Position numbers and translations under genes: made by a program. A model generated the notes under the pieces. It saw only the letters and a program-made list of their open reading frames with translations, ran no database searches and had not been told where the DNA came from. A DNA stretch of 20,000 nt, from IMG/VR virus record IMGVR_UViG_3300027736_000038, positions 57,363 through 77,362 of that record; one strand, 5' to 3'. Shown one piece after another: positions 2,652 through 19,999 of the stretch (within the stretch, counting starts at the first letter, position 1; the number at the start of each line of letters is the position of its first letter). This DNA comes from an uncultured virus (IMG/VR IMGVR_UViG_3300027736_000038). Its lineage: Duplodnaviria; Heunggongvirae; Uroviricota; Caudoviricetes.

Positions 2652-3416
2652 TTATCTGGTCAATATATTTGTTACTGCGCCCGCATTGCTAGTGAATTGC
2701 ATACGAACATAAGGATGAAATCCTTCAATTACATATCCAACCGTTTGTGTAACATTAGAGACTTCCTCAGTAGTTACAATATCATACCAATCATTATCCA
2801 CAATACTGCTACCTTGAATAGTTGTGTTTCCATAGAATTCAATGTACTCAGTTTGGATAGTTAGTATTGGATTGTTATTAGTACTCAGTACACTAGTAGT
2901 GTAAGTGATGCTACTTCCATTACTGTTAGGACTATTAGGAAAGGCTTGCCCAGTTGGGATTGTGATATTGTATGATGGGACAAAGTTAGGTAATACACTA
3001 TTAACAATATTCATCTCGCCACGGGCGCCGGCGTTTTGATCCACAAACACAGGGAAGTCAAACTCATTAACTGGTATTTCTAAGGTATAATAGCATTTTT
3101 GAGCCTGTATATTCTCAAGGTCCGCAGCATTTAAATATAACGCACAAATACCGGTGGCAGCAAACTGCAAGGTCAATGCTTTCTGTATTAAGATTTCATT
3201 ACCTGTGTAGTTTAATATACGGCAAGTGATACTTTTTCCAGTAACATCTACGGGTTTTTGCTCTTGATTCAGGAATTGAAACTGGATTTGATTATCCACT
3301 CCCTTATGTAGGGTTAATGGTTTGGCATAGACTGGCATATATTTCCTCGGTGAATAGCCTGACAATAACACAACAATGTTGCGCTGAACGTAATAAAATA
3401 CTGATGTTGAATACAC
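2652..3416 (-). CDS. Hypothetical beta-rich protein, possibly virion structural (BppU-N/Ig-like N-terminal half)
   Basis: 254-aa ORF with GTG start and AGGAG RBS at 3426-3430; pattern LTLHKGVDNQIQFQFLNQEQKPVDVTG...Y-x-L-E; upstream ACTAAATA motif. Confidence 0.5.
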   Translation of the reverse strand: MYSTSVFYYVQRNIVVLLSGYSPRKYMPVYAKPLTLHKGVDNQIQFQFLNQEQKPVDVTGKSITCRILNYTGNEILIQKALTLQFAATGICALYLNAADLENIQAQKCYYTLEIPVNEFDFPVFVDQNAGARGEMNIVNSVLPNFVPSYNITIPTGQAFPNSPNSNGSSITYTTSVLSTNNNPILTIQTEYIEFYGNTTIQGSSIVDNDWYDIVTTEEVSNVTQTVGYVIEGFHPYVRMQFTSNAGAVTNILTR

Positions 3417-3436
3417 AAATGTAGGCTCCTATAACG

Positions 3437-3486
3437 TATTTAGTCTATATATTTTAATTTAATTAACTTTGGTTACCCGATAAATA
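3437..3486. promoter_or_regulatory. Divergent pair of late-promoter-like motifs (ACTAAATA on minus at 3437-3444; GATAAATA on plus at 3479-3486)
   Basis: A TAAATA core lies 17-20 nt upstream of each divergent start codon in an AT-rich intergenic region. Confidence 0.5.
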
Positions 3487-3503
3487 AACTGTTAACTAAA
3501 ATA

Positions 3504-3884
3504 ATGATCCAAAACGAATTCTTTAAACGATTGACAGAAAATCACCCGTTCATTACAGTATGTTCATATGCCAACCAAGATTATGTAGGTATTGTTCAAA
3601 ACCGTGATGACATGGTCACCACTATATATGATTACGGTGCTATAACCGATAACACAATCAAAGAAAAGTTCTTAGAATTAGGAGAAGTTTGGTGGTGGGA
3701 AAGTAATCGTCTTGTCCCTATCAATCTGTTTTTAAAGGATGATTGGCTACCCTTTAAACCCTACTTAAGGACCTTTACTAACAAAAGTCTAGTAGTGGTT
3801 CACGGTCCAACGTGCAGTATGAATGAATTAAGTAAACGCCGTAGTAAACGCCGTAGCATCACCCTCGTTAAGAGAATGCCCTAA
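3504..3884 (+). CDS. Hypothetical phage protein with WWWES motif and basic C-terminus; the only convincing plus-strand gene
   Basis: 126-aa ORF occupying a gap with no minus-strand gene; upstream TAAATA motif; protein-like composition. Confidence 0.8.
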   Translation: MIQNEFFKRLTENHPFITVCSYANQDYVGIVQNRDDMVTTIYDYGAITDNTIKEKFLELGEVWWWESNRLVPINLFLKDDWLPFKPYLRTFTNKSLVVVHGPTCSMNELSKRRSKRRSITLVKRMP

Positions 3885-4439
3885 CAAATTCATGTGAACA
3901 ACTACTAGTTGTGCGTAGGCTACACTATGACTACGTTTGAATACATACCCATCAGTTCCCTTATCCCATACAGTTTTACTAATCTCACTCCAAGATTTCC
4001 CAATCAAATGCTTTTTACCAGGACGAATAACTGCTAAAAACATAGATAATCTTGGGATACTATCTATAGGTTCTGGCATCTTCTCTAAATTGTAGTACTG
4101 ATTATTCAAGTGAATAAGTTTTTCAACAAAAGATTTATCCTTCAGTTTACTCCAATCAGGCTCAACCATCAATTCATTAAGATGTTGTTCATCTCTGACA
4201 TTCTCATAAACATGAACATTCAACAAATCTAGTTTGAAGTAACCACGCTTCTCGGCTTCTGTATAGTCAATACTTGCGATATCATGTATTGGATCATAGG
4301 GAATAGGTGTAACATATACACCAGTAGCATGTTTACGAATAGGATTGACATTACGCATTGCTGCGCTTGTATGTTTAATCAGTTCAAGCAATTTATCTCT
4401 TGAACCAAAGTCAATGTCAATATCACTATCTATTCTCAT
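3828..4439 (-). CDS. dnaE: Miniature family C DNA polymerase (DnaE alpha-subunit palm/fingers fragment)
   Basis: Ordered DnaE motifs DIDIDF, KHATGVYV, GYFKLDLL, AVIRPG and YVFKRSHSVAYA in only 203 aa. Confidence 0.8.
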   Translation of the reverse strand: MRIDSDIDIDFGSRDKLLELIKHTSAAMRNVNPIRKHATGVYVTPIPYDPIHDIASIDYTEAEKRGYFKLDLLNVHVYENVRDEQHLNELMVEPDWSKLKDKSFVEKLIHLNNQYYNLEKMPEPIDSIPRLSMFLAVIRPGKKHLIGKSWSEISKTVWDKGTDGYVFKRSHSVAYAQLVVVHMNLLGHSLNEGDATAFTTAFT

Positions 4440-4753
4440 CCTCTGAACCCCGGTAGATTATCCCAGTCACCGTTCCAATCGGGGGGTAACCACGGGTTAG
4501 TGAAATCACGTTCGGAAGGCCCTTCTACTTTTAAATCAAACGCCTTTGCAAACTTTTTTGCGTCTTTTTTAAATTTAAAACTAAACTCTATTACCTCTTT
4601 ATTATCTACTAAATCAGTACAATCTTCAGCATCAATGACAGTTATGTTGTTATCAACTAACCAAGTCATCAACTTAAAATCATCTTCATTCTGCATATAG
4701 TCATCATATTCTTTTTCCGTTTCAAATTTATATGCTACAATATATACCATCAT
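4436..4753 (-). CDS. Hypothetical acidic protein; possible distant member of the F-x-L-R-W array family
   Basis: ATGA overlaps at both ends; WLVDN...FSFKFKKDAKKF resembles the array motif. Confidence 0.7.
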   Translation of the reverse strand: MMVYIVAYKFETEKEYDDYMQNEDDFKLMTWLVDNNITVIDAEDCTDLVDNKEVIEFSFKFKKDAKKFAKAFDLKVEGPSERDFTNPWLPPDWNGDWDNLPGFRG

Positions 4754-5310
4754 GGTGCCATTACTCCTGCTTTAATTAGTTTAGTATACGCTTTTTGTAC
4801 AACAATTGCTTGTCTTTCGGCATCTTCTACTGCTTTGTGACTAGTAGAATGTCCGCCATCACTTAGTTTGACTCCTGCAACTTCATACAACGTTCTAGTA
4901 TCTCGTACGGTATAGAATGGCCACGGTATTCGCACTCCAAGTTGCCTCCATGCGGTCTCGCAAGCAACGATATCAAATGCAGCCCCATTAGACCACACAG
5001 CACGGCGATTCCAACAAAACTTATAAAGGGTTTCCATACATTCACTAAATGAAACACGTCCTTCATCTCCCATCGCTTCTTCAAGTGCGGCAGGGCTTTG
5101 TTTTGCCCACCATTCAATTGTACTGTCATCAATTATCCTATCATATTTTTCTGTCTGTTCTTCAATCGTAGGACGCAATTCTAATCGTTCTACTACACCA
5201 TTACCCTTAGGATCAAACCGCACAGCTCCTATAGTTAATATAACACAATATGGACTTGTGTCAAGTGTCTCCAAATCAATCATTATATCATTTGCCATTA
5301 CATCTGCCAC
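4750..5310 (-). CDS. DEDDh 3'-5' exonuclease (DnaQ-like / Rv2179c-like)
   Basis: ExoI IDLET, ExoII WSNGAAFD, RDTRT, ExoIII HKAVEDA. Confidence 0.88.
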   Translation of the reverse strand: MADVMANDIMIDLETLDTSPYCVILTIGAVRFDPKGNGVVERLELRPTIEEQTEKYDRIIDDSTIEWWAKQSPAALEEAMGDEGRVSFSECMETLYKFCWNRRAVWSNGAAFDIVACETAWRQLGVRIPWPFYTVRDTRTLYEVAGVKLSDGGHSTSHKAVEDAERQAIVVQKAYTKLIKAGVMAP

Positions 5311-5570
5311 ATTTCATACATTGTTATAAATCTATCATCCCACAACTCTATTGTAACACATCCTCCAGCTAAAGAGAAGTCCCAACCTTGGTGTCTTTCA
5401 CCAAAATTTCTTCTCATCCATTTTACAATGATAGATGGATCCTCTTTATGATATCTACAATCTCTTTGATAGACTGTTTTGTGTCCTGCTTTATATTTGT
5501 TATCCTTACATAAAGAGCCTGAGGCATTGGGATATGCTGGATGGAAACATTCTGTGTATTTTATTGCCAT
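5298..5570 (-). CDS. Small hypothetical protein, divergent array member
   Basis: KWMRRNFG...WDF...DDRFITMYEMW pattern; tightly packed with neighbours. Confidence 0.75.
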   Translation of the reverse strand: MAIKYTECFHPAYPNASGSLCKDNKYKAGHKTVYQRDCRYHKEDPSIIVKWMRRNFGERHQGWDFSLAGGCVTIELWDDRFITMYEMWQM

Positions 5571-5571
5571 A

Positions 5572-5841
5572 TCATCCCCATTTTAATAAAAATATTAAAT
5601 AGAGTTTTTCATCTACTATCTGATAACCATCTGTTATATTGCCATTGGTAATATTCATTCTTACACCGTACTTCTTTTGTAGATAATCTTCAAAATCATA
5701 TGCGTCAAAATCAGTTTTGTTTTCCATGTACTCTACACGAACTTTTTTCAATGCTTCCCAATACTTCCAACGATTCTTTCGTTGATGTAATGCCGGATCA
5801 TCGTCATCATAATCTTGAAATGATTTTGATATATTGGTCAT
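5572..5841 (-). CDS. Small hypothetical protein, F-x-L-[RK]-W array member
   Basis: Ends DEKLYLIFLLKWG; start taken at the ATGA overlap. Confidence 0.8.
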   Translation of the reverse strand: MTNISKSFQDYDDDDPALHQRKNRWKYWEALKKVRVEYMENKTDFDAYDFEDYLQKKYGVRMNITNGNITDGYQIVDEKLYLIFLLKWG

Positions 5842-6041
5842 ACCCATCTCAATGCAAAGTAAGTACTGTATTCTTCTTTGTAGAAATTAAACACTGCTCG
5901 GCGATCTCTTGTATCATATGTGGAAGAACGATGATATGCCCAATCAAAATCTACTCCATCAGTCCAGCCGTGTGCTTGCATTTGATGTAATATTTCTATT
6001 ACTTCATTCGCACTTTTGCCGTAGATGGTTACAGATTTCAT
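5838..6041 (-). CDS. Small hypothetical protein, F-x-L-R-W array member
   Basis: Ends FNFYKEEYSTYFALRWV; ATGA overlaps. Confidence 0.8.
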   Translation of the reverse strand: MKSVTIYGKSANEVIEILHQMQAHGWTDGVDFDWAYHRSSTYDTRDRRAVFNFYKEEYSTYFALRWV

Positions 6042-6283
6042 TCCCAGCGCAATAAAAACAATGTTAAATCTTCGTCACGGGTAAGCATTATCTCACATTG
6101 CTTAATATTATCTACCCAACGATTACTTCCAGTTTCATCATCATACCCTGAATTGCCGTAATTCTTTTTACACCATTTCTTGATTTCTTTAGGGTCAACA
6201 TCATCTTGGTTCTTCCAAGAGATAGTATGTATATTAACTTTGCTACCAAAATAGCGTTCTGTTTTGTGTGTAAATTTACTCAT
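6038..6283 (-). CDS. Small hypothetical protein, F-x-L-R-W array member
   Basis: KWCKKNYG...RDEDLTLFLLRWE; start taken at the ATGA overlap. Confidence 0.8.
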   Translation of the reverse strand: MSKFTHKTERYFGSKVNIHTISWKNQDDVDPKEIKKWCKKNYGNSGYDDETGSNRWVDNIKQCEIMLTRDEDLTLFLLRWE

Positions 6284-6540
6284 GACCACCTCAATATGAA
6301 AAATGTAGCATCACTACCTTCTTTGAAAGCAATTCTGCCGTCCCAACAATGATATTCATGATATTCAATTTTATTTTCTTCTAACCAATCTGTTACACTA
6401 TTACGCACACTAGGAATGTACCATGGATGCGGTATGTTAACAACAGTCCAACCCATAGCATTATACAATACTTCTGTATCAATGCTGTCAGCCATATCTT
6501 TAGCAAGTTTGTCAATGTATTCGTGTTCTATATCTATCAT
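6280..6540 (-). CDS. Small hypothetical protein, F-x-L-R-W array member
   Basis: DWLEEN...IAFKEGSDATFFILRWS; start taken at the ATGA overlap. Confidence 0.8.
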   Translation of the reverse strand: MIDIEHEYIDKLAKDMADSIDTEVLYNAMGWTVVNIPHPWYIPSVRNSVTDWLEENKIEYHEYHCWDGRIAFKEGSDATFFILRWS

Positions 6541-6779
6541 GACCATCTCAATATAAAATGTGTAGCATCTTTTGCGTCTACGAAATAGAATGTACTACCA
6601 GCCCACTCATTTTTTTGCAAACAACAATCACGCCTAGTATGTTCACTAACCCACCTAACCATTTCCGCAACTTGATCACACCAATCAGTCCAATTCATTC
6701 CTGGGCGTACTGTAAGATGTACCTTGTGATAATTCTTATCAATATCACGTTTTTCTTTTCTACGCTGTTTGCTGTTCAT
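6537..6779 (-). CDS. Small hypothetical protein, F-x-L-R-W array member
   Basis: RWVSEH...FYFVDAKDATHFILRWS; start taken at the ATGA overlap. Confidence 0.8.
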   Translation of the reverse strand: MNSKQRRKEKRDIDKNYHKVHLTVRPGMNWTDWCDQVAEMVRWVSEHTRRDCCLQKNEWAGSTFYFVDAKDATHFILRWS

Positions 6780-7078
6780 GACCATCTCAATATGAAAAAG
6801 GTTCTATCTGCTTCATCACGGAACCAATACTTACGATTGCTGCCTACCCAACGTGCGTTTTCTTTATGCCAATTATTATCACCCATTATGTTTAGCAGCC
6901 ATTTGTCCATGTCATACCACTCTTTCTCCTCGTAGTTGTGTGGACGAACCCAGTAGGGCCATTTAGGTTGATTGTCAGCATAACCAGTTTCAAGGCGTTT
7001 CACGTTGATTTCATCTATCCATTGATTTGCTAAATCAGATACCCATCTATTGTTAGCCATGGCACGTTTCTTTATCAT
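6776..7078 (-). CDS. Small hypothetical protein, F-x-L-R-W array member
   Basis: KWLLNIMG...YWFRDEADRTFFILRWS. Confidence 0.8.
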   Translation of the reverse strand: MIKKRAMANNRWVSDLANQWIDEINVKRLETGYADNQPKWPYWVRPHNYEEKEWYDMDKWLLNIMGDNNWHKENARWVGSNRKYWFRDEADRTFFILRWS

Positions 7079-7323
7079 TCAACCCAGTCTTTTTCCAAAA
7101 GTTTTAAATGTTTCTTATTTACAAAATGTATATCACAATAAGGGTCTCCATGGTTGCCTTGTACTAATATCATATACCAACCTTGTCCTTCCCAGGCAAC
7201 AATAGGCTTAGCGGCAACTAATTTGCCTATATTTTTTTGTAGCCAAATTAACAGGGCGGCATAGTCTGCGCCCCATAATCTGGCCACATATTTATAAGTT
7301 ACTTGTTTTGTTTTTGTTACCAT
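7075..7323 (-). CDS. Small hypothetical protein, divergent array member
   Basis: IWLQKNIG...IHFVNKKHLKLLEKDW; overlaps both neighbours. Confidence 0.75.
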   Translation of the reverse strand: MVTKTKQVTYKYVARLWGADYAALLIWLQKNIGKLVAAKPIVAWEGQGWYMILVQGNHGDPYCDIHFVNKKHLKLLEKDWVE

Positions 7324-7532
7324 CTTAAACTACAAAAAATGTAGTCTCGTTCATATCTAAATTTTATTCTTACTTCAAATTCATCCCAGGTGCACAATGT
7401 GTGCCTTTCATAATTTTCAATTTTATTACATACCCAATCTATTATTTCAATACGATGCAGTTGCCGGCGGTTTTCATCTAGTTTAATAACACGTTCATGC
7501 CAACCCGGTCGTATATCTTCCCATCTTCTCAT
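7317..7532 (-). CDS. Small hypothetical protein, array member
   Basis: DWVCNKI...IKFRYERDYIFCSLRW; start taken at the ATGA overlap. Confidence 0.8.
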   Translation of the reverse strand: MRRWEDIRPGWHERVIKLDENRRQLHRIEIIDWVCNKIENYERHTLCTWDEFEVRIKFRYERDYIFCSLRW

Positions 7533-7765
7533 AACCATCTTAAACTAAAATGTATCGCATCACGCTCATCTTTAAATACAAAATCCATATAATCTTCTGT
7601 CATGTGTGTGTAAAACTTCCCACCCGGCAAATCAAATTGTTCCATTGCCCAAATACAAGTTTCATCCCAATCACTAATTGTATCACCTTTCATCCAAGGG
7701 ATACGAACCCTAGTACCCTGCTTCACCGAGGGTGTCTTTAATTCGTTTCGTAAGTTCTGCATCAC
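7529..7765 (-). CDS. Small hypothetical protein, F-x-L-R-W array member (start uncertain; GTG at 7726 plausible)
   Basis: IWAMEQF...FVFKDERDAIHFSLRWL. Confidence 0.75.
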   Translation of the reverse strand: MMQNLRNELKTPSVKQGTRVRIPWMKGDTISDWDETCIWAMEQFDLPGGKFYTHMTEDYMDFVFKDERDAIHFSLRWL

Positions 7766-8411
7766 GTTTAAACCTTATTGCCCACTGTTCTGGATTTATA
7801 TAATCAATGATCATTTTAACATGGCCTTCATTTAATCCATCTAAGAAATGGACCCCGCTGTCGCTTTGATACAACAACCATGGACTAATCTTACCCGTTG
7901 TTATCGCATAACAAATCTTATTTGCATTGCCATATCTCAATAAGTCATGTGGCTGTATGTTAGCGTCACTTGCCATTTCTATACATTTTTCAATGCTACG
8001 ATGTATAGCATCAAATGGATCTTCATGTCTCAAAAACTCAATTAGATATTTAGTGTATGTACTATCACTACACCAATTGTCAATCTTAACTTGATTCTTT
8101 AATAACCAATCAGTAAATCTTGGAATATTTATCGCATTGATGTTGACACAATAATTACCAAACTTAACAAACGCAATGTAATATGGATTCTTAATAAAAT
8201 CTTCTTGCTTAAGATTCTTTCGTTTTGATGTATTCTTTTTATAAAACTCCAACCAACATTGAAACCCAATACGATTGCCGTGATTGTCTTTATCTAACCA
8301 TCTACGCTTCTGCTCACATACATGACTAAGCGTGGTTGATTCACGCAAGAACTCCCTCTTACAAAATTCACAGCCATACTTTGCTGCCTTAATTGCCGAG
8401 GTCTCTTTCAT
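7710..8411 (-). CDS. Hypothetical protein with N-terminal C2H2/C2HC-type zinc finger
   Basis: YGCEFCKREFLRESTTLSHVC (C-x2-C-x12-H-x-C); the ATG at 8411 is preferred over 8444 because it reduces the overlap. Confidence 0.7.
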   Translation of the reverse strand: MKETSAIKAAKYGCEFCKREFLRESTTLSHVCEQKRRWLDKDNHGNRIGFQCWLEFYKKNTSKRKNLKQEDFIKNPYYIAFVKFGNYCVNINAINIPRFTDWLLKNQVKIDNWCSDSTYTKYLIEFLRHEDPFDAIHRSIEKCIEMASDANIQPHDLLRYGNANKICYAITTGKISPWLLYQSDSGVHFLDGLNEGHVKMIIDYINPEQWAIRFKRDAELTKRIKDTLGEAGY

Positions 8412-8982
8412 ATTGCTTAAGTTGTTCTTCAGTAATAGTTTCATTTAATGTCTCAATGTCTGTTAGTTTCATATTAGGAAACAATTCTGCTAATTTAAGT
8501 TTGCGTTTTTGATTAACTACAAACGCTTCACTTACTGCGTCAATATCATCACTATCTGCTCTAGGATATATCTTCTTGTAATACTCTTTAATATCTTTTA
8601 GTTTAGCTGCTGCTTGTAATTTACTTACCTTAGGGCTGATGTTAGGTATCCACTGATGGAATTGTTTACCTGAGCCCGGGCTACTAGCACACATCATCAA
8701 CCATTGTAGTTTAGGATGCTTTTGAATATTCTCATTGAACAGATACTTGTTCGCATACTCTGCTGTACTCATTACATAATAACGACTTAATCCCTCACTA
8801 CCTTTAATAGCACTTAGCCATTGTATCATTGTAAACGGGACAAACTTTTTTTGTTGTTCGGGTGATAGTCTATCAAAGAAATCATAATCTTTCTTATCTA
8901 ATGCGGCAAGGACCTCAAACAAGTCTAAATCTTGTTTGTCAAATTTTTCATCAACGGGTACTGCTACTTTTCTTGTTGCCAT
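8389..8982 (-). CDS. Probable clamp-loader small subunit (T4 gp62-like)
   Basis: Size and pattern FVPFTMIQWLS...N...HPKLQW...KQFHQWI...IKEYY resemble the gp62 family; replication context. Confidence 0.5.
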   Translation of the reverse strand: MATRKVAVPVDEKFDKQDLDLFEVLAALDKKDYDFFDRLSPEQQKKFVPFTMIQWLSAIKGSEGLSRYYVMSTAEYANKYLFNENIQKHPKLQWLMMCASSPGSGKQFHQWIPNISPKVSKLQAAAKLKDIKEYYKKIYPRADSDDIDAVSEAFVVNQKRKLKLAELFPNMKLTDIETLNETITEEQLKQYERDLGN

Positions 8983-12417: not shown

Positions 12418-12585
12418 TTATTTTTTAACCGGAACGCCAGTCATTTGTACGCAGGCGGCTTTCATATTTTGCTGCTTAAATTCCTGTGCTACTTTAGCAC
12501 AAGTTTCCTGTTGTTCAAACTGGCCCACATACATGACACTGGTAGATGACAATCCTGCACCGATTAGAACGATAGTCCAAAACAT
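12418..12585 (-). CDS. 55-aa protein with hydrophobic N-terminus and two Cys (MFWTIVLIGAGLSSTSVMYVGQFEQQETCAKVAQEFKQQNMKAACVQMTGVPVKK)
   Basis: Manual translation; starts 1 nt after the upstream stop and ends 1 nt before the next -35 box; not in the ORF track. Confidence 0.75.
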   Translation of the reverse strand: MFWTIVLIGAGLSSTSVMYVGQFEQQETCAKVAQEFKQQNMKAACVQMTGVPVKK

Positions 12586-12586
12586 A

Positions 12587-12805
12587 TTATGCCTTCAAAA
12601 TGTTAACAATACGCTGATGGATGATATCCATTTCATCCCGCTCAACATAAAAGTCCGTAGTCGGGTCATAGTACATGCCTTCTTTAGTATCGTAATACAG
12701 GACACGTCCGGAGAAGTTGAAAGGACCTTCTAGCCCCTTACGCGGACCGTACTTGGTACGCATTTCATCCATCTGATGTTTGTCTGCGATAACTTTGTAG
12801 CCCAT
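12587..12805 (-). CDS. Small early hypothetical protein (MGYKVIADK...; 72 aa)
   Basis: ATG at 12805 with AGGAG RBS, downstream of promoter copy 5; YYDTKEGMYYDPTTD motif. Confidence 0.8.
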   Translation of the reverse strand: MGYKVIADKHQMDEMRTKYGPRKGLEGPFNFSGRVLYYDTKEGMYYDPTTDFYVERDEMDIIHQRIVNILKA

Positions 12806-12838
12806 ATAAAACTCCTGTTGTTGACTGAATAAGACTCT

Positions 12839-12867
12839 ATTATATACCCAAAACCATTTAATGTCAA
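12839..12867 (-). promoter_or_regulatory. Repeated early promoter copy 5 (TTGACA-17-TATAAT)
   Basis: TTGACA TTAAATGGTTTTGGGTA TATAAT. Confidence 0.9.
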
Positions 12868-13130
12868 GCCCTATATGTAGCGTATCCGCGGATTTTGCTC
12901 TGCTTATTAGCGTGGCTTTCGTTGAATTTGATCTCATATCCACGGTCACGCAAAGCGACCACTAGTACTGACAAATCACAATCTTCTTCCAAAAAAGCAT
13001 TGGTACCATTTTGGTAGCTGTATGTAGAGATTTTATCTGCGATACCAAGACTGACCAACTTTGCTTTGGGGAAGCGGGCCCATGCATGACCCGGGTCACC
13101 GAACACTTTGATAGAGATTTTTTTAGCCAT
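12864..13130 (-). CDS. Small early hypothetical protein with DPGH-x-W and LEEDCD motifs
   Basis: Own promoter and RBS; TGA stop lies inside the next TTGACA. Confidence 0.8.
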   Translation of the reverse strand: MAKKISIKVFGDPGHAWARFPKAKLVSLGIADKISTYSYQNGTNAFLEEDCDLSVLVVALRDRGYEIKFNESHANKQSKIRGYATYRA

Positions 13131-18439: not shown

Positions 18440-19999
18440 TTATTTTCTAATGATTCTTAGAATAGCGTCTAGGTCCTCTTGACCTTCACGCATTTGTTGT
18501 CCGATATCATTGTCCATACCTTGTTTAACTTGATGGCCGCCGGCAAACATTGCTAATGCACCCAATACAACTAACATTGATACTAGTACCAAAGCATTTT
18601 TACCATTAGGGTCATTCATCATCTGTGTTAAATCTGGTTTACCCATAGCAATATATGCTCTCATCATAATGTCGGCAGCACCTGCTAATAGACCGCCGCC
18701 TGCACTAGCAGCCACAGCGCCGCCGATTTTTTGACCCCAACCTTCAGCTACAGCTTGTTGTCCGCCAACTGCTTGTTGAATGTTTGCAACTAAATCTTTA
18801 CCATTTGCACTATGTTGTAATGCTTGAGTCAATTCTGCTTTCTTGGATTGTGCCATTTGAATATATTTTTGTATTCCTGGCATTGCTTTAATTTTAGCAA
18901 TCATACTGTTCAATGAATCCATGAGACTTTCATTTAATTGGATGCTTTCTTTCACATTTTTCTTGCTAATGATTCTTAGAATAGCATCAAAATCTTCTTG
19001 CCCTTCTTTTACATTACCCTTTTCTTTTTGTCTCTGTTCTAATTCTTTGCCGTATGTGTCTACTTTCTTACGGAATTCCTTTTCCTGTTCTGGAGTAGTT
19101 TCACCCTTATGAGTTGATTTACGGGCATCATATTCACCAGTGTCTACTTCATGTAATGTATTGCCAAGATCGGTATCTTTCATACTTGGTTCATGTTTTG
19201 GTTTCTCTAATCTCTTTAACATCTTTGATATCTTGTCATGGATGTTATCAATCTTATCATTTTCAAAATCATGTTCAAATTCGTTAGCACCAGGATTGCG
19301 GCCGCGCATGGCATGTTGAGTATGTTCACCTTCTTCAAGTTCATCATCAAGCGCAGCCGAATAAGCCATATGCACAAAATCTTCAGTGTCTGGATGATTA
19401 CCACCTATGATCCAATCCATGCCACCACTGTTAGATTGAGGATATATAGTAGCAATTAATCCATTACCAAATTCTAAAACCCATGTATCATCTTCTCCGG
19501 GTGGTCCAAATGCAAATTCTAAATCTTCCTTAGATGTTCTTAATGAACCCTTGCCCGTTGTTTTATGTGCCTTACTAGGATCATCACTGATGTTCATCAC
19601 TTCAGTTGGATCAAATTTATCTAAATAACGTTTATCGTTTTTGGATCTACCAAACATACCCTCATCTTCTTCAGTTGTAACTGCTTGGCTAGCTTGGTTG
19701 ATAAAGTTTTCATTAGCACCGACTAGTTTACCAATGTTATTGTTTTTAACTTTCTCTGTTGGGCCTAATTGACCTACACGCTTTTGATTAGCATCAAGAC
19801 CTTCTTCCGCCACACCTTGCTCTTCAGGTAATTGCCCCTTAGGACCTGCCATTGGTTTTGTTTTTAGTCTTTGCTTTGTATCTTGTTGATGTTGTGTTTT
19901 ATAATGTGGTGATTCTACTTGGTCAAGGTCCATAAATCTGTCAAAATCATCAGCGGCACGATTTATTCCACGAGTTACTCCGCGGTTAGATAAGTTAGA
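18440..19999 (-). CDS. Large modular protein, 5'-truncated by the window edge; probable internal head protein
   Basis: The frame stays open upstream of 19933 to the edge (SNLSNRGVTRGINRAADDFDRF-M); repeated [VLM]-x-E motifs; duplicated C-terminal peptide. Confidence 0.7.
   Translation of the reverse strand, partial: SNLSNRGVTRGINRAADDFDRFMDLDQVESPHYKTQHQQDTKQRLKTKPMAGPKGQLPEEQGVAEEGLDANQKRVGQLGPTEKVKNNNIGKLVGANENFINQASQAVTTEEDEGMFGRSKNDKRYLDKFDPTEVMNISDDPSKAHKTTGKGSLRTSKEDLEFAFGPPGEDDTWVLEFGNGLIATIYPQSNSGGMDWIIGGNHPDTEDFVHMAYSAALDDELEEGEHTQHAMRGRNPGANEFEHDFENDKIDNIHDKISKMLKRLEKPKHEPSMKDTDLGNTLHEVDTGEYDARKSTHKGETTPEQEKEFRKKVDTYGKELEQRQKEKGNVKEGQEDFDAILRIISKKNVKESIQLNESLMDSLNSMIAKIKAMPGIQKYIQMAQSKKAELTQALQHSANGKDLVANIQQAVGGQQAVAEGWGQKIGGAVAASAGGGLLAGAADIMMRAYIAMGKPDLTQMMNDPNGKNALVLVSMLVVLGALAMFAGGHQVKQGMDNDIGQQMREGQEDLDAILRIIRK
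18447..19006. repeat. 41-bp direct repeat pair (18447-18487, 18966-19006) encoding EGQEDxDAILRII
   Basis: 35/41 identical by manual alignment, including a 20-bp exact match CTAATGATTCTTAGAATAGC. Confidence 0.85.

Follow-up and report, generated by a model that had tools for sequence, protein, structure and literature searches.

Can a protein of 203 residues that carries the catalytic motifs of the bacterial replicative polymerase DnaE act as a polymerase, and does it act alone? The question is raised by an open reading frame (ORF) at 3828-4439, minus strand, of a 20,000-nucleotide stretch of DNA from an uncultured virus (IMG/VR record IMGVR_UViG_3300027736_000038, positions 57,363 to 77,362). 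This stretch, the window of the present analysis, is the terminal 20 kb of a 77,362-bp virus record with a CheckV completeness of about 22%. A preliminary description of the sequence had presented the ORF as a miniature DnaE-type polymerase with its thumb domain deleted, and had proposed that it could be half of a split enzyme. The ORF is real. Its product, called here the C-unit, is very probably one of the two chains of a miniature family C (DnaE-type) nucleotidyltransferase, the partner being a 171-residue protein called here the N-unit. The evidence is computational throughout, and consists of homology and collinearity with DnaE, co-occurrence of the two genes, a confident interface model, natural fusions and purifying selection.

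Homology of the C-unit to family C polymerases

The C-unit matches PHROG 11778, annotated "DNA polymerase", with an E-value of 5.8e-56, its residues 5-187 aligning to positions 7-192 of the 197 in that profile. An exhaustive search at E <= 1e-3 collected 373 clusters at 50% identity; among the best 150 of these, 147 are under 220 residues long. A profile was constructed from 79 full-length homologues drawn from this search. Run against the PDB, it returned nine matches, every one a Pol III alpha chain, with a best E-value of 7.5e-6. C-unit residues 54-140 align to residues 538-641 of these chains and residues 151-180 to residues 739-769, and the stretch containing FKLDLL falls on the KFDFLGL motif of solved Pol III alpha. 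A single-sequence phmmer search of the PDB with the C-unit returned no polymerase, only chance matches to proteasome proteins (E 0.39-0.5), and megablast of window positions 3000-6000 against phage records found no match.

Structural comparison leads to the same assignment. The AlphaFold model of the C-unit is confident, with a predicted local distance difference test score (pLDDT) of 93.5 and a predicted template modelling score of 0.87. A Foldseek search with this model places family C polymerases at all of ranks 1-14, with a best E-value of 3.7e-3. Alignment of residues 1-203 by VIA-align likewise fills its top 14 rows with family C polymerases, including PolC 3f2b (Z 9.8, root-mean-square deviation [rmsd] 3.6, 198 residues aligned), Taq DnaE 3e0d (Z 9.7, rmsd 3.8, 199 aligned) and the E. 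coli chain 2hnh over residues 397-790 (Z 7.8, rmsd 3.7, 192 aligned), while the best unrelated row reaches only Z 3.3. The match to DnaE is far above chance, and both the fold and the family C membership proposed in the preliminary description are borne out.

Five motifs, DIDIDF, KHATGVYV, FKLDLL, IRPG and FKRSH, occur in the C-unit in DnaE order, as had been described, and all five were located on the protein (Table 1). Translated E. coli K-12 DnaE, in which the corresponding motifs stand at residues 401, 510, 553, 638 and about 755, served as the reference for spacing. The second and third catalytic aspartates, D8 and D71, are separated by 63 residues in the C-unit and by 152 residues (D403 to D555) in E. 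coli, which agrees with the shortened spacing reported earlier. The interval from DxD to KHxxG is 30 residues compared to 109 in E. coli, a difference of about 79 residues or roughly one thumb. The proposed thumb deletion therefore stands, but it is not the only shortening: the fingers, on which the preliminary description was silent, have lost about 90 residues, with RPG and KSH separated by 29 residues here and by 119 in E. coli.

The residues expected to be essential are retained. D6, D8, K69, D71, R139 and P140 are invariant in 79 of 79 homologues and in 65 of 65 IMG/VR loci, and D10, H37, G40, K168 and H171 are each kept in at least 90% of the 79 sequences. The ratio of nonsynonymous to synonymous substitution rates (dN/dS), calculated by the Nei-Gojobori method over codons 1-187, is low, with a median of 0.081 and a range of 0.036-0.149 for 46 distinct sequences, all paired with the window sequence and hence not independent of one another. 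These represent 65 of 80 loci, with no bad ones among them; the other 15 were left out. A first pass lost 18 of 44 loci to stop codons in the variable tail and was redone on codons 1-187. Residues 188-203 were considered as a possible clamp-binding peptide, a candidate rejected on the finding that the stop codons of close relatives fall at codon 188, 192 or 199.

The N-unit and the evidence for a single enzyme

The preliminary description had proposed a search for a separate ORF with a GxGRGS motif, the palm segment that the C-unit lacks. Model PF07733 picks exactly one other ORF in the 77-kb contig, that of the N-unit. Its C-terminal end, VWGVGRGSSVASYVLYLIGIHRINSLYYQLSVDEFLK, has the form GRGS...DEFLK, and the spacing from GRGS to EFL is 28 residues both here and in E. 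coli DnaE. In a predicted model of the N-unit (pLDDT 83.2), residues 73-171 align structurally to E. coli DnaE residues 278-393 (Z 9.0, rmsd 2.4, 94 aligned). Family C polymerases occupy the top seven listed rows of this comparison, after which Z falls to 3.3. Residues G137, G139, R140, G141, S142 and S143 of the GxGRGSS motif are invariant in 45 sequences.

Placed on DnaE, the two halves abut. The last residue of the N-unit corresponds to E. coli N393. The C-unit begins at about 396-397, starting five residues before DxD; its homologues begin 1-17 residues before that motif. No intein halves were found at the break, where the N-unit ends in EFLK and E. coli has ERFLN. The end of the N-unit at EFLK and the start of the C-unit so close to DxD leave no space for intein halves, and in the absence of an intein the chains would have to associate non-covalently.

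The two genes travel together. A tblastn search over 50,697 phage records detected the C-unit in 96, of which 95 had at least 80% coverage, and the N-unit in 95. All records with either half are jumbo myoviruses, and the tallies by genus are equal except for one Klebsiella record. Each of three large IMG/VR relatives has a single copy of each half, 49-95 kb apart. The corresponding distance is 34 kb in GAP32, 44 kb in PA5oct, 182 kb in Atu_ph07 and 49 kb in the present contig. The wider family is large: IMG/VR holds 460 relatives, and the N-unit is found in at least 8,000 clusters at 90% identity.

Complex models of the two chains, built with both alignments, scored 0.90, 0.90 and 0.89, and the best control scored 0.01. 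Among solved complexes, 116 of 157 attain the mark used to read these scores, and among mismatched pairs 2 of 215 do. The runs share at least 97% of their contacts, with a pLDDT of 87 for the partner chain. In the model, residues 132-145 of the N-unit, which form the GRGS loop, contact residues 3-12 of the C-unit, which include the DxD strand.

Nature also provides the two units in one chain. Cluster representatives P0171, P0273 and P0274, 375-376 residues in length, contain both, with about twelve residues spanning the break; the fused forms are 78-81% identical to P0171. In a tree of 93 C-unit sequences, the fused forms make up one clade, with a support of 100 by the Shimodaira-Hasegawa-like approximate likelihood-ratio test (SH-aLRT), that sits within a 12-row clade of stand-alone C-units (SH-aLRT 96). 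This tree, built by a quick method and rooted at its midpoint, amounts to unrooted evidence in which "split" rows were assigned by length alone; it suggests that the fused forms arose by secondary fusion. A scan of viral contigs for the DNA of P0171 gave 18 pattern matches, none of them confirmed. The fused forms are unlikely to be an artefact of assembly or gene calling because they come as three clusters from different sources.

Proposed mechanism and alternative explanations

We regard a two-chain enzyme with a composite active site as highly probable, which supports the split-enzyme option raised in the preliminary description. The checks listed there on fold, partner ORF, family B replicase, dN/dS and catalytic aspartates each gave a favorable outcome. 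From the N-unit would come the start of the palm (E. coli 278-393), with the GxGRGSS loop that binds the nucleotide. The C-unit would contribute the rest of the palm, with D6, D8 and D71, together with cut-down fingers bearing RPG and K-x-S-H (E. coli 397-790). The break falls in the loop that leads from the helix behind the GS motif to the DxD strand. The chains, joined non-covalently, would form one active site from both. Such a heterodimer would add deoxynucleoside triphosphates to a primer on a template, distributively for lack of a thumb, a clamp-binding region, HhH motifs and an OB domain. Beside a family B replicase, it would carry out short-patch synthesis, such as extending primers, filling gaps or repair. 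A role as an accessory templated DNA polymerase has about an even chance of being correct.

The two-chain enzyme is not the main replicase of the phage. A family B polymerase is present in all three complete cultured relatives and in all three large IMG/VR relatives, and the genome G001, in which both halves are 100% identical to those of the window record, encodes one of 903 residues. The remaining DnaE domains are absent, as the preliminary description had stated for the C-unit. The PHP domain (PF02811, E <= 1) is found in 0 of 4 records, namely the contig and three complete relatives, compared to 14 of 14 control genomes, and the C-unit reaches no further than the counterpart of about residue 790 in E. 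coli, short of the clamp-binding region and OB domain. The Pfam model for the fingers gives three sub-threshold matches, two on C-units themselves and the third on another ORF of GAP32.

Several results weigh against the two-chain polymerase. At the level of homology, a Pfam search of the C-unit returns no family at E <= 10, the finger model scores under its cut-off, hhalign of the C-unit with E. coli DnaE is weak (probability 65.6%, E 5.8e-5), and the Foldseek E-values are marginal, none reaching 1e-3. For the pairing, one phage record has the C-unit with the N-unit undetected at E <= 1e-3 (96 records versus 95), and the passing score of the complex model may stem from the resemblance of both chains to solved DnaE, reflecting likeness rather than binding. 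Residues 1-71 of the N-unit, with pLDDT values of 58-86, matched no solved fold in comparisons that barely tested them. The 77-kb fragment, at about 22% of the genome, contains no family B polymerase, so the presence of that replicase in this virus is deduced from G001. An enzyme stripped of its thumb, most of its fingers, clamp-binding region, HhH motifs and OB domain leaves its grip on the primer-template unexplained, and literature searches found no biochemical or genetic data on the family.

A more specific version of the two-chain polymerase is a mini Pol III of the T4-like jumbo-phage replisome, dedicated to primer extension or gap filling, which would hand over to the family B replicase and, in this clade, would use the neighboring exonuclease (see below) as a proofreader acting in trans. 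Pol alpha, or DnaE alongside PolC in Bacillus, would offer a parallel to its role. We consider this version improbable.

Also improbable, but foremost among the rival explanations, is a two-chain nucleotidyltransferase of the Pol-beta fold that is not a templated DNA polymerase at all, but instead adds nucleotides without a template, tails or marks DNA or RNA ends, or makes a nucleotide product. The Pol-beta-like superfamily has many non-polymerase transferases. In DnaE structures, duplex DNA is held by the thumb, clamp-binding region, HhH motifs and OB domain; all of these are absent here, and a full family B replicase is already present. Set against this explanation are the conserved RPG and K-x-S-H motifs, which are specific to the fingers of family C polymerases, the structural searches, whose sole matches are replicative family C polymerases before scores drop to Z 3.3, and the location of both genes in conserved replication blocks, with primase and helicase near the C-unit and a clamp loader near the N-unit.

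Other explanations fare worse. That the C-unit is a self-sufficient miniature polymerase, as the preliminary description implied by its title, is very hard to sustain: it has all three catalytic aspartates and folds confidently alone, but the nucleotide-binding GS motif and the initial half of the palm reside in the partner, which co-occurs with it and is fused to it in some forms. Least credible is a decaying remnant of full-length DnaE, or a pair of halves joined after translation by a split intein, since, although split-intein DnaE genes are known and the gene is a fraction of DnaE in length, the low dN/dS, the invariant active site, the many clusters of similarly short proteins and the lack of PHP or other DnaE domains elsewhere in relatives speak against decay, and the ends of the halves leave no room for an intein. 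Activity of the C-unit on its own, decay of the gene and splicing by an intein can all nearly be excluded.

Gene neighborhood and relation to known systems

Coordinates of the features discussed are given in Table 1.

Table 1. Features of the window and of the N-unit locus (aa, amino acids; positions are those of the window unless stated otherwise).
Feature	Position	Strand	Evidence or remark
DnaB-like helicase	218-1660	minus	conserved block downstream of C-unit
Primase	1641-2615	minus	conserved block downstream of C-unit
Convergent 126-aa gene	3504..3884	plus	overlaps C-unit 3' end; PHROG 11637, E 6.7e-31
C-unit ORF, 203 aa	3828..4439	minus	ATG at 4439, stop at 3828-3830; PHROG 11778; DnaE-like model
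Non-conserved C-terminal tail, residues 188-203	3831..3878	minus	relatives' stops; pLDDT 51-67; overlaps convergent gene 3504-3884
Conserved core, residues 1-187	3879..4439	minus	relatives' stops; dN/dS; pLDDT 86-98
FKRSH, residues 167-171	3927..3941	minus	E. coli FNKSH 756-760, fingers; profile alignment
IRPG, residues 138-141	4017..4028	minus	E. coli FRPG 638-641, fingers; profile alignment and hhalign
FKLDLL, residues 68-73 (K69, D71)	4221..4238	minus	E. coli K553/D555, third catalytic aspartate
KHATGVYV, residues 36-43	4311..4334	minus	E. coli KHAGGVV at 510, after DnaE thumb
DIDIDF, residues 6-11 (D6, D8, D10)	4407..4424	minus	D6/D8 = E. coli D401/D403, first two catalytic aspartates
105-aa ORF between exonuclease and C-unit	4436-4753	minus	in 6 of 57 close IMG/VR loci
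Rv2179c-like 3'-5' exonuclease, stand-alone	4750..5310	minus	PF16473, E 6.6e-33; PHROG 255; two genes upstream of C-unit
244-aa protein	7710-8444	minus	PHROG 11058, E 3.1e-57
N-unit ORF, 171 aa	record positions 12510-13025 (G000:C1)	minus	PF07733, E 1.5e-8; PHROG 11127, E 2.9e-40

The C-unit belongs to a block of conserved order. UvsW comes first, then three family-specific genes, which precede the C-unit; a convergent small gene, a structural gene, primase and helicase follow. This order is seen in Phosso, GAP32 and PAC2 as well as here. A small gene on the opposite strand adjoins the C-unit in those three phages and lies downstream of it in 42 of 42 informative IMG/VR loci; the order of helicase and primase is the same in all of these. 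The contig as a whole carries UvsW, UvsX, UvsY, SSB, primase, helicase and clamp loader. Downstream of the N-unit, all four genomes looked at have a small ORF, then a GroES-like gene and an RFC-like clamp loader. This arrangement is core-genome synteny and no proof of a functional link.

In all 57 close IMG/VR loci, the exonuclease lies no more than 1.5 kb upstream of the C-unit. None of three cultured relatives has one annotated directly upstream, and GAP32 has one about 4.4 kb upstream, before UvsW. The exonuclease was accordingly rejected as an obligate partner of the C-unit and is regarded as clade-specific. The 105-aa ORF that separates the two genes, whose stop codon overlaps the C-unit start codon as ATGA, looks like a recent insertion; a contig from sequencing run X2 joins position 4435 straight to 4750 and omits it. 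Of eleven sequencing runs, none with a word share above 0.24, four were compared with the window, all as contigs. In the one run recorded as RNA (X5), coverage is confined to part of the exonuclease gene and to 36 bases at 3675-3710, the C-unit being uncovered. The other three are probably DNA.

Further upstream, the 244-aa protein corresponds by position to a PAC2 ORF annotated as a C2H2-type zinc-finger protein, which is directly upstream of the C-unit in that phage. This conserved neighbor was considered as a candidate third subunit; in an Atlas look-up it finds virus-specific hypothetical clusters only. On the minus strand at 5572-7765, nine short overlapping ORFs of 67-100 residues stand in tandem. 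Eight of the nine end in a W-containing motif (of the kind F.LRWS, LLRWE, SLRWL or LLKWG), and several start with MVM; searches of these ORFs against Pfam and PHROG gave no matches. The run lies in a gap between the zinc-finger gene and the C-unit that varies from 3.3 to 6.4 kb among close relatives. At the far end of the window, a 497-aa ORF (18440-19933, minus strand) has a weak holin-like Pfam hint (E 0.0052) at its hydrophobic C-terminus and no PHROG match, and contains a motif of about 14 residues twice, as EGQEDFDAILRIISKK and EGQEDLDAILRIIRK.

The pair described here is not new. Iyer, Anantharaman, Krishnan, Burroughs and Aravind (2021, Viruses 13:63; PMC7824862) described a "minimal, split Pol III alpha", which they assign to jumbo phages of group 2.2. 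In that account, the split enzyme stands beside a family B polymerase and was suggested to cooperate in the synthesis of one strand or in repair. The window pair belongs to this described enzyme. As in the published description, distant genes encode an N-terminal NTP-binding unit and a C-terminal Mg2+- and template-binding unit, and other DnaE domains are lacking, here in a 77-kb contig that represents about 22% of the genome. The setting is again that of a T4-like jumbo phage, with UvsW, SSB, clamp loader and, by way of G001, a family B polymerase. There is no difference in architecture; the copy here comes from an uncultured phage and is 37-47% identical to the PA5oct, Atu_ph07, Phosso and GAP32-type copies. 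In the clade of this phage, a hyperplastic block of small genes and the Rv2179c-like exonuclease are found between the zinc-finger gene and the C-unit. The available portion of that paper yielded no mention of the rare fused 375-376-residue forms. Literature searches found no further paper on the split mini Pol III family and no experiment; one genome paper lists "DNA polymerase III DnaE" among its annotations, in the part seen (PMC11895373).

Compared to DnaE and PolC of known structure (2hnh, 3e0d, 3f2b), the phage proteins share the Pol-beta-like palm, the GS motif, DxD and the third aspartate, here spread over two chains, as well as the RPG and KSH finger motifs in the same order. They differ in having no PHP domain, no thumb and fingers shorter by about 90 residues. 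Whereas E. coli DnaE is a single chain of 1160 residues, the catalytic core here occupies two chains that total 374 residues (171 + 203), with nothing past the equivalent of residue 790 or so and thus no clamp-binding region, HhH motifs or OB domain.

Cyanobacterial split-intein DnaE (DnaE-n and DnaE-c) is also a family C polymerase that comes from two distant genes. Unlike it, the phage system has no intein at the junction, would not be expected to undergo trans-splicing, and is minimal. Its break also falls elsewhere, just before the DxD strand.

The window itself holds an ordinary further copy of a family that has been in print since 2021, and the importance of the finding rests with the family. 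If active, the two-chain enzyme would have by far the smallest core of any family C polymerase, its two chains together amounting to about 370 residues compared to about 1,160 for E. coli DnaE, and its catalytic palm would be built from two proteins without splicing. Were it indeed a polymerase dedicated to primer extension or gap filling, the fused forms would be the smallest single-chain family C polymerases known. The family bears on the minimum of DnaE that catalysis requires, on why T4-like giant phages retain a second, bacterial-type polymerase beside their family B replicase, and on the origin of family C polymerases.

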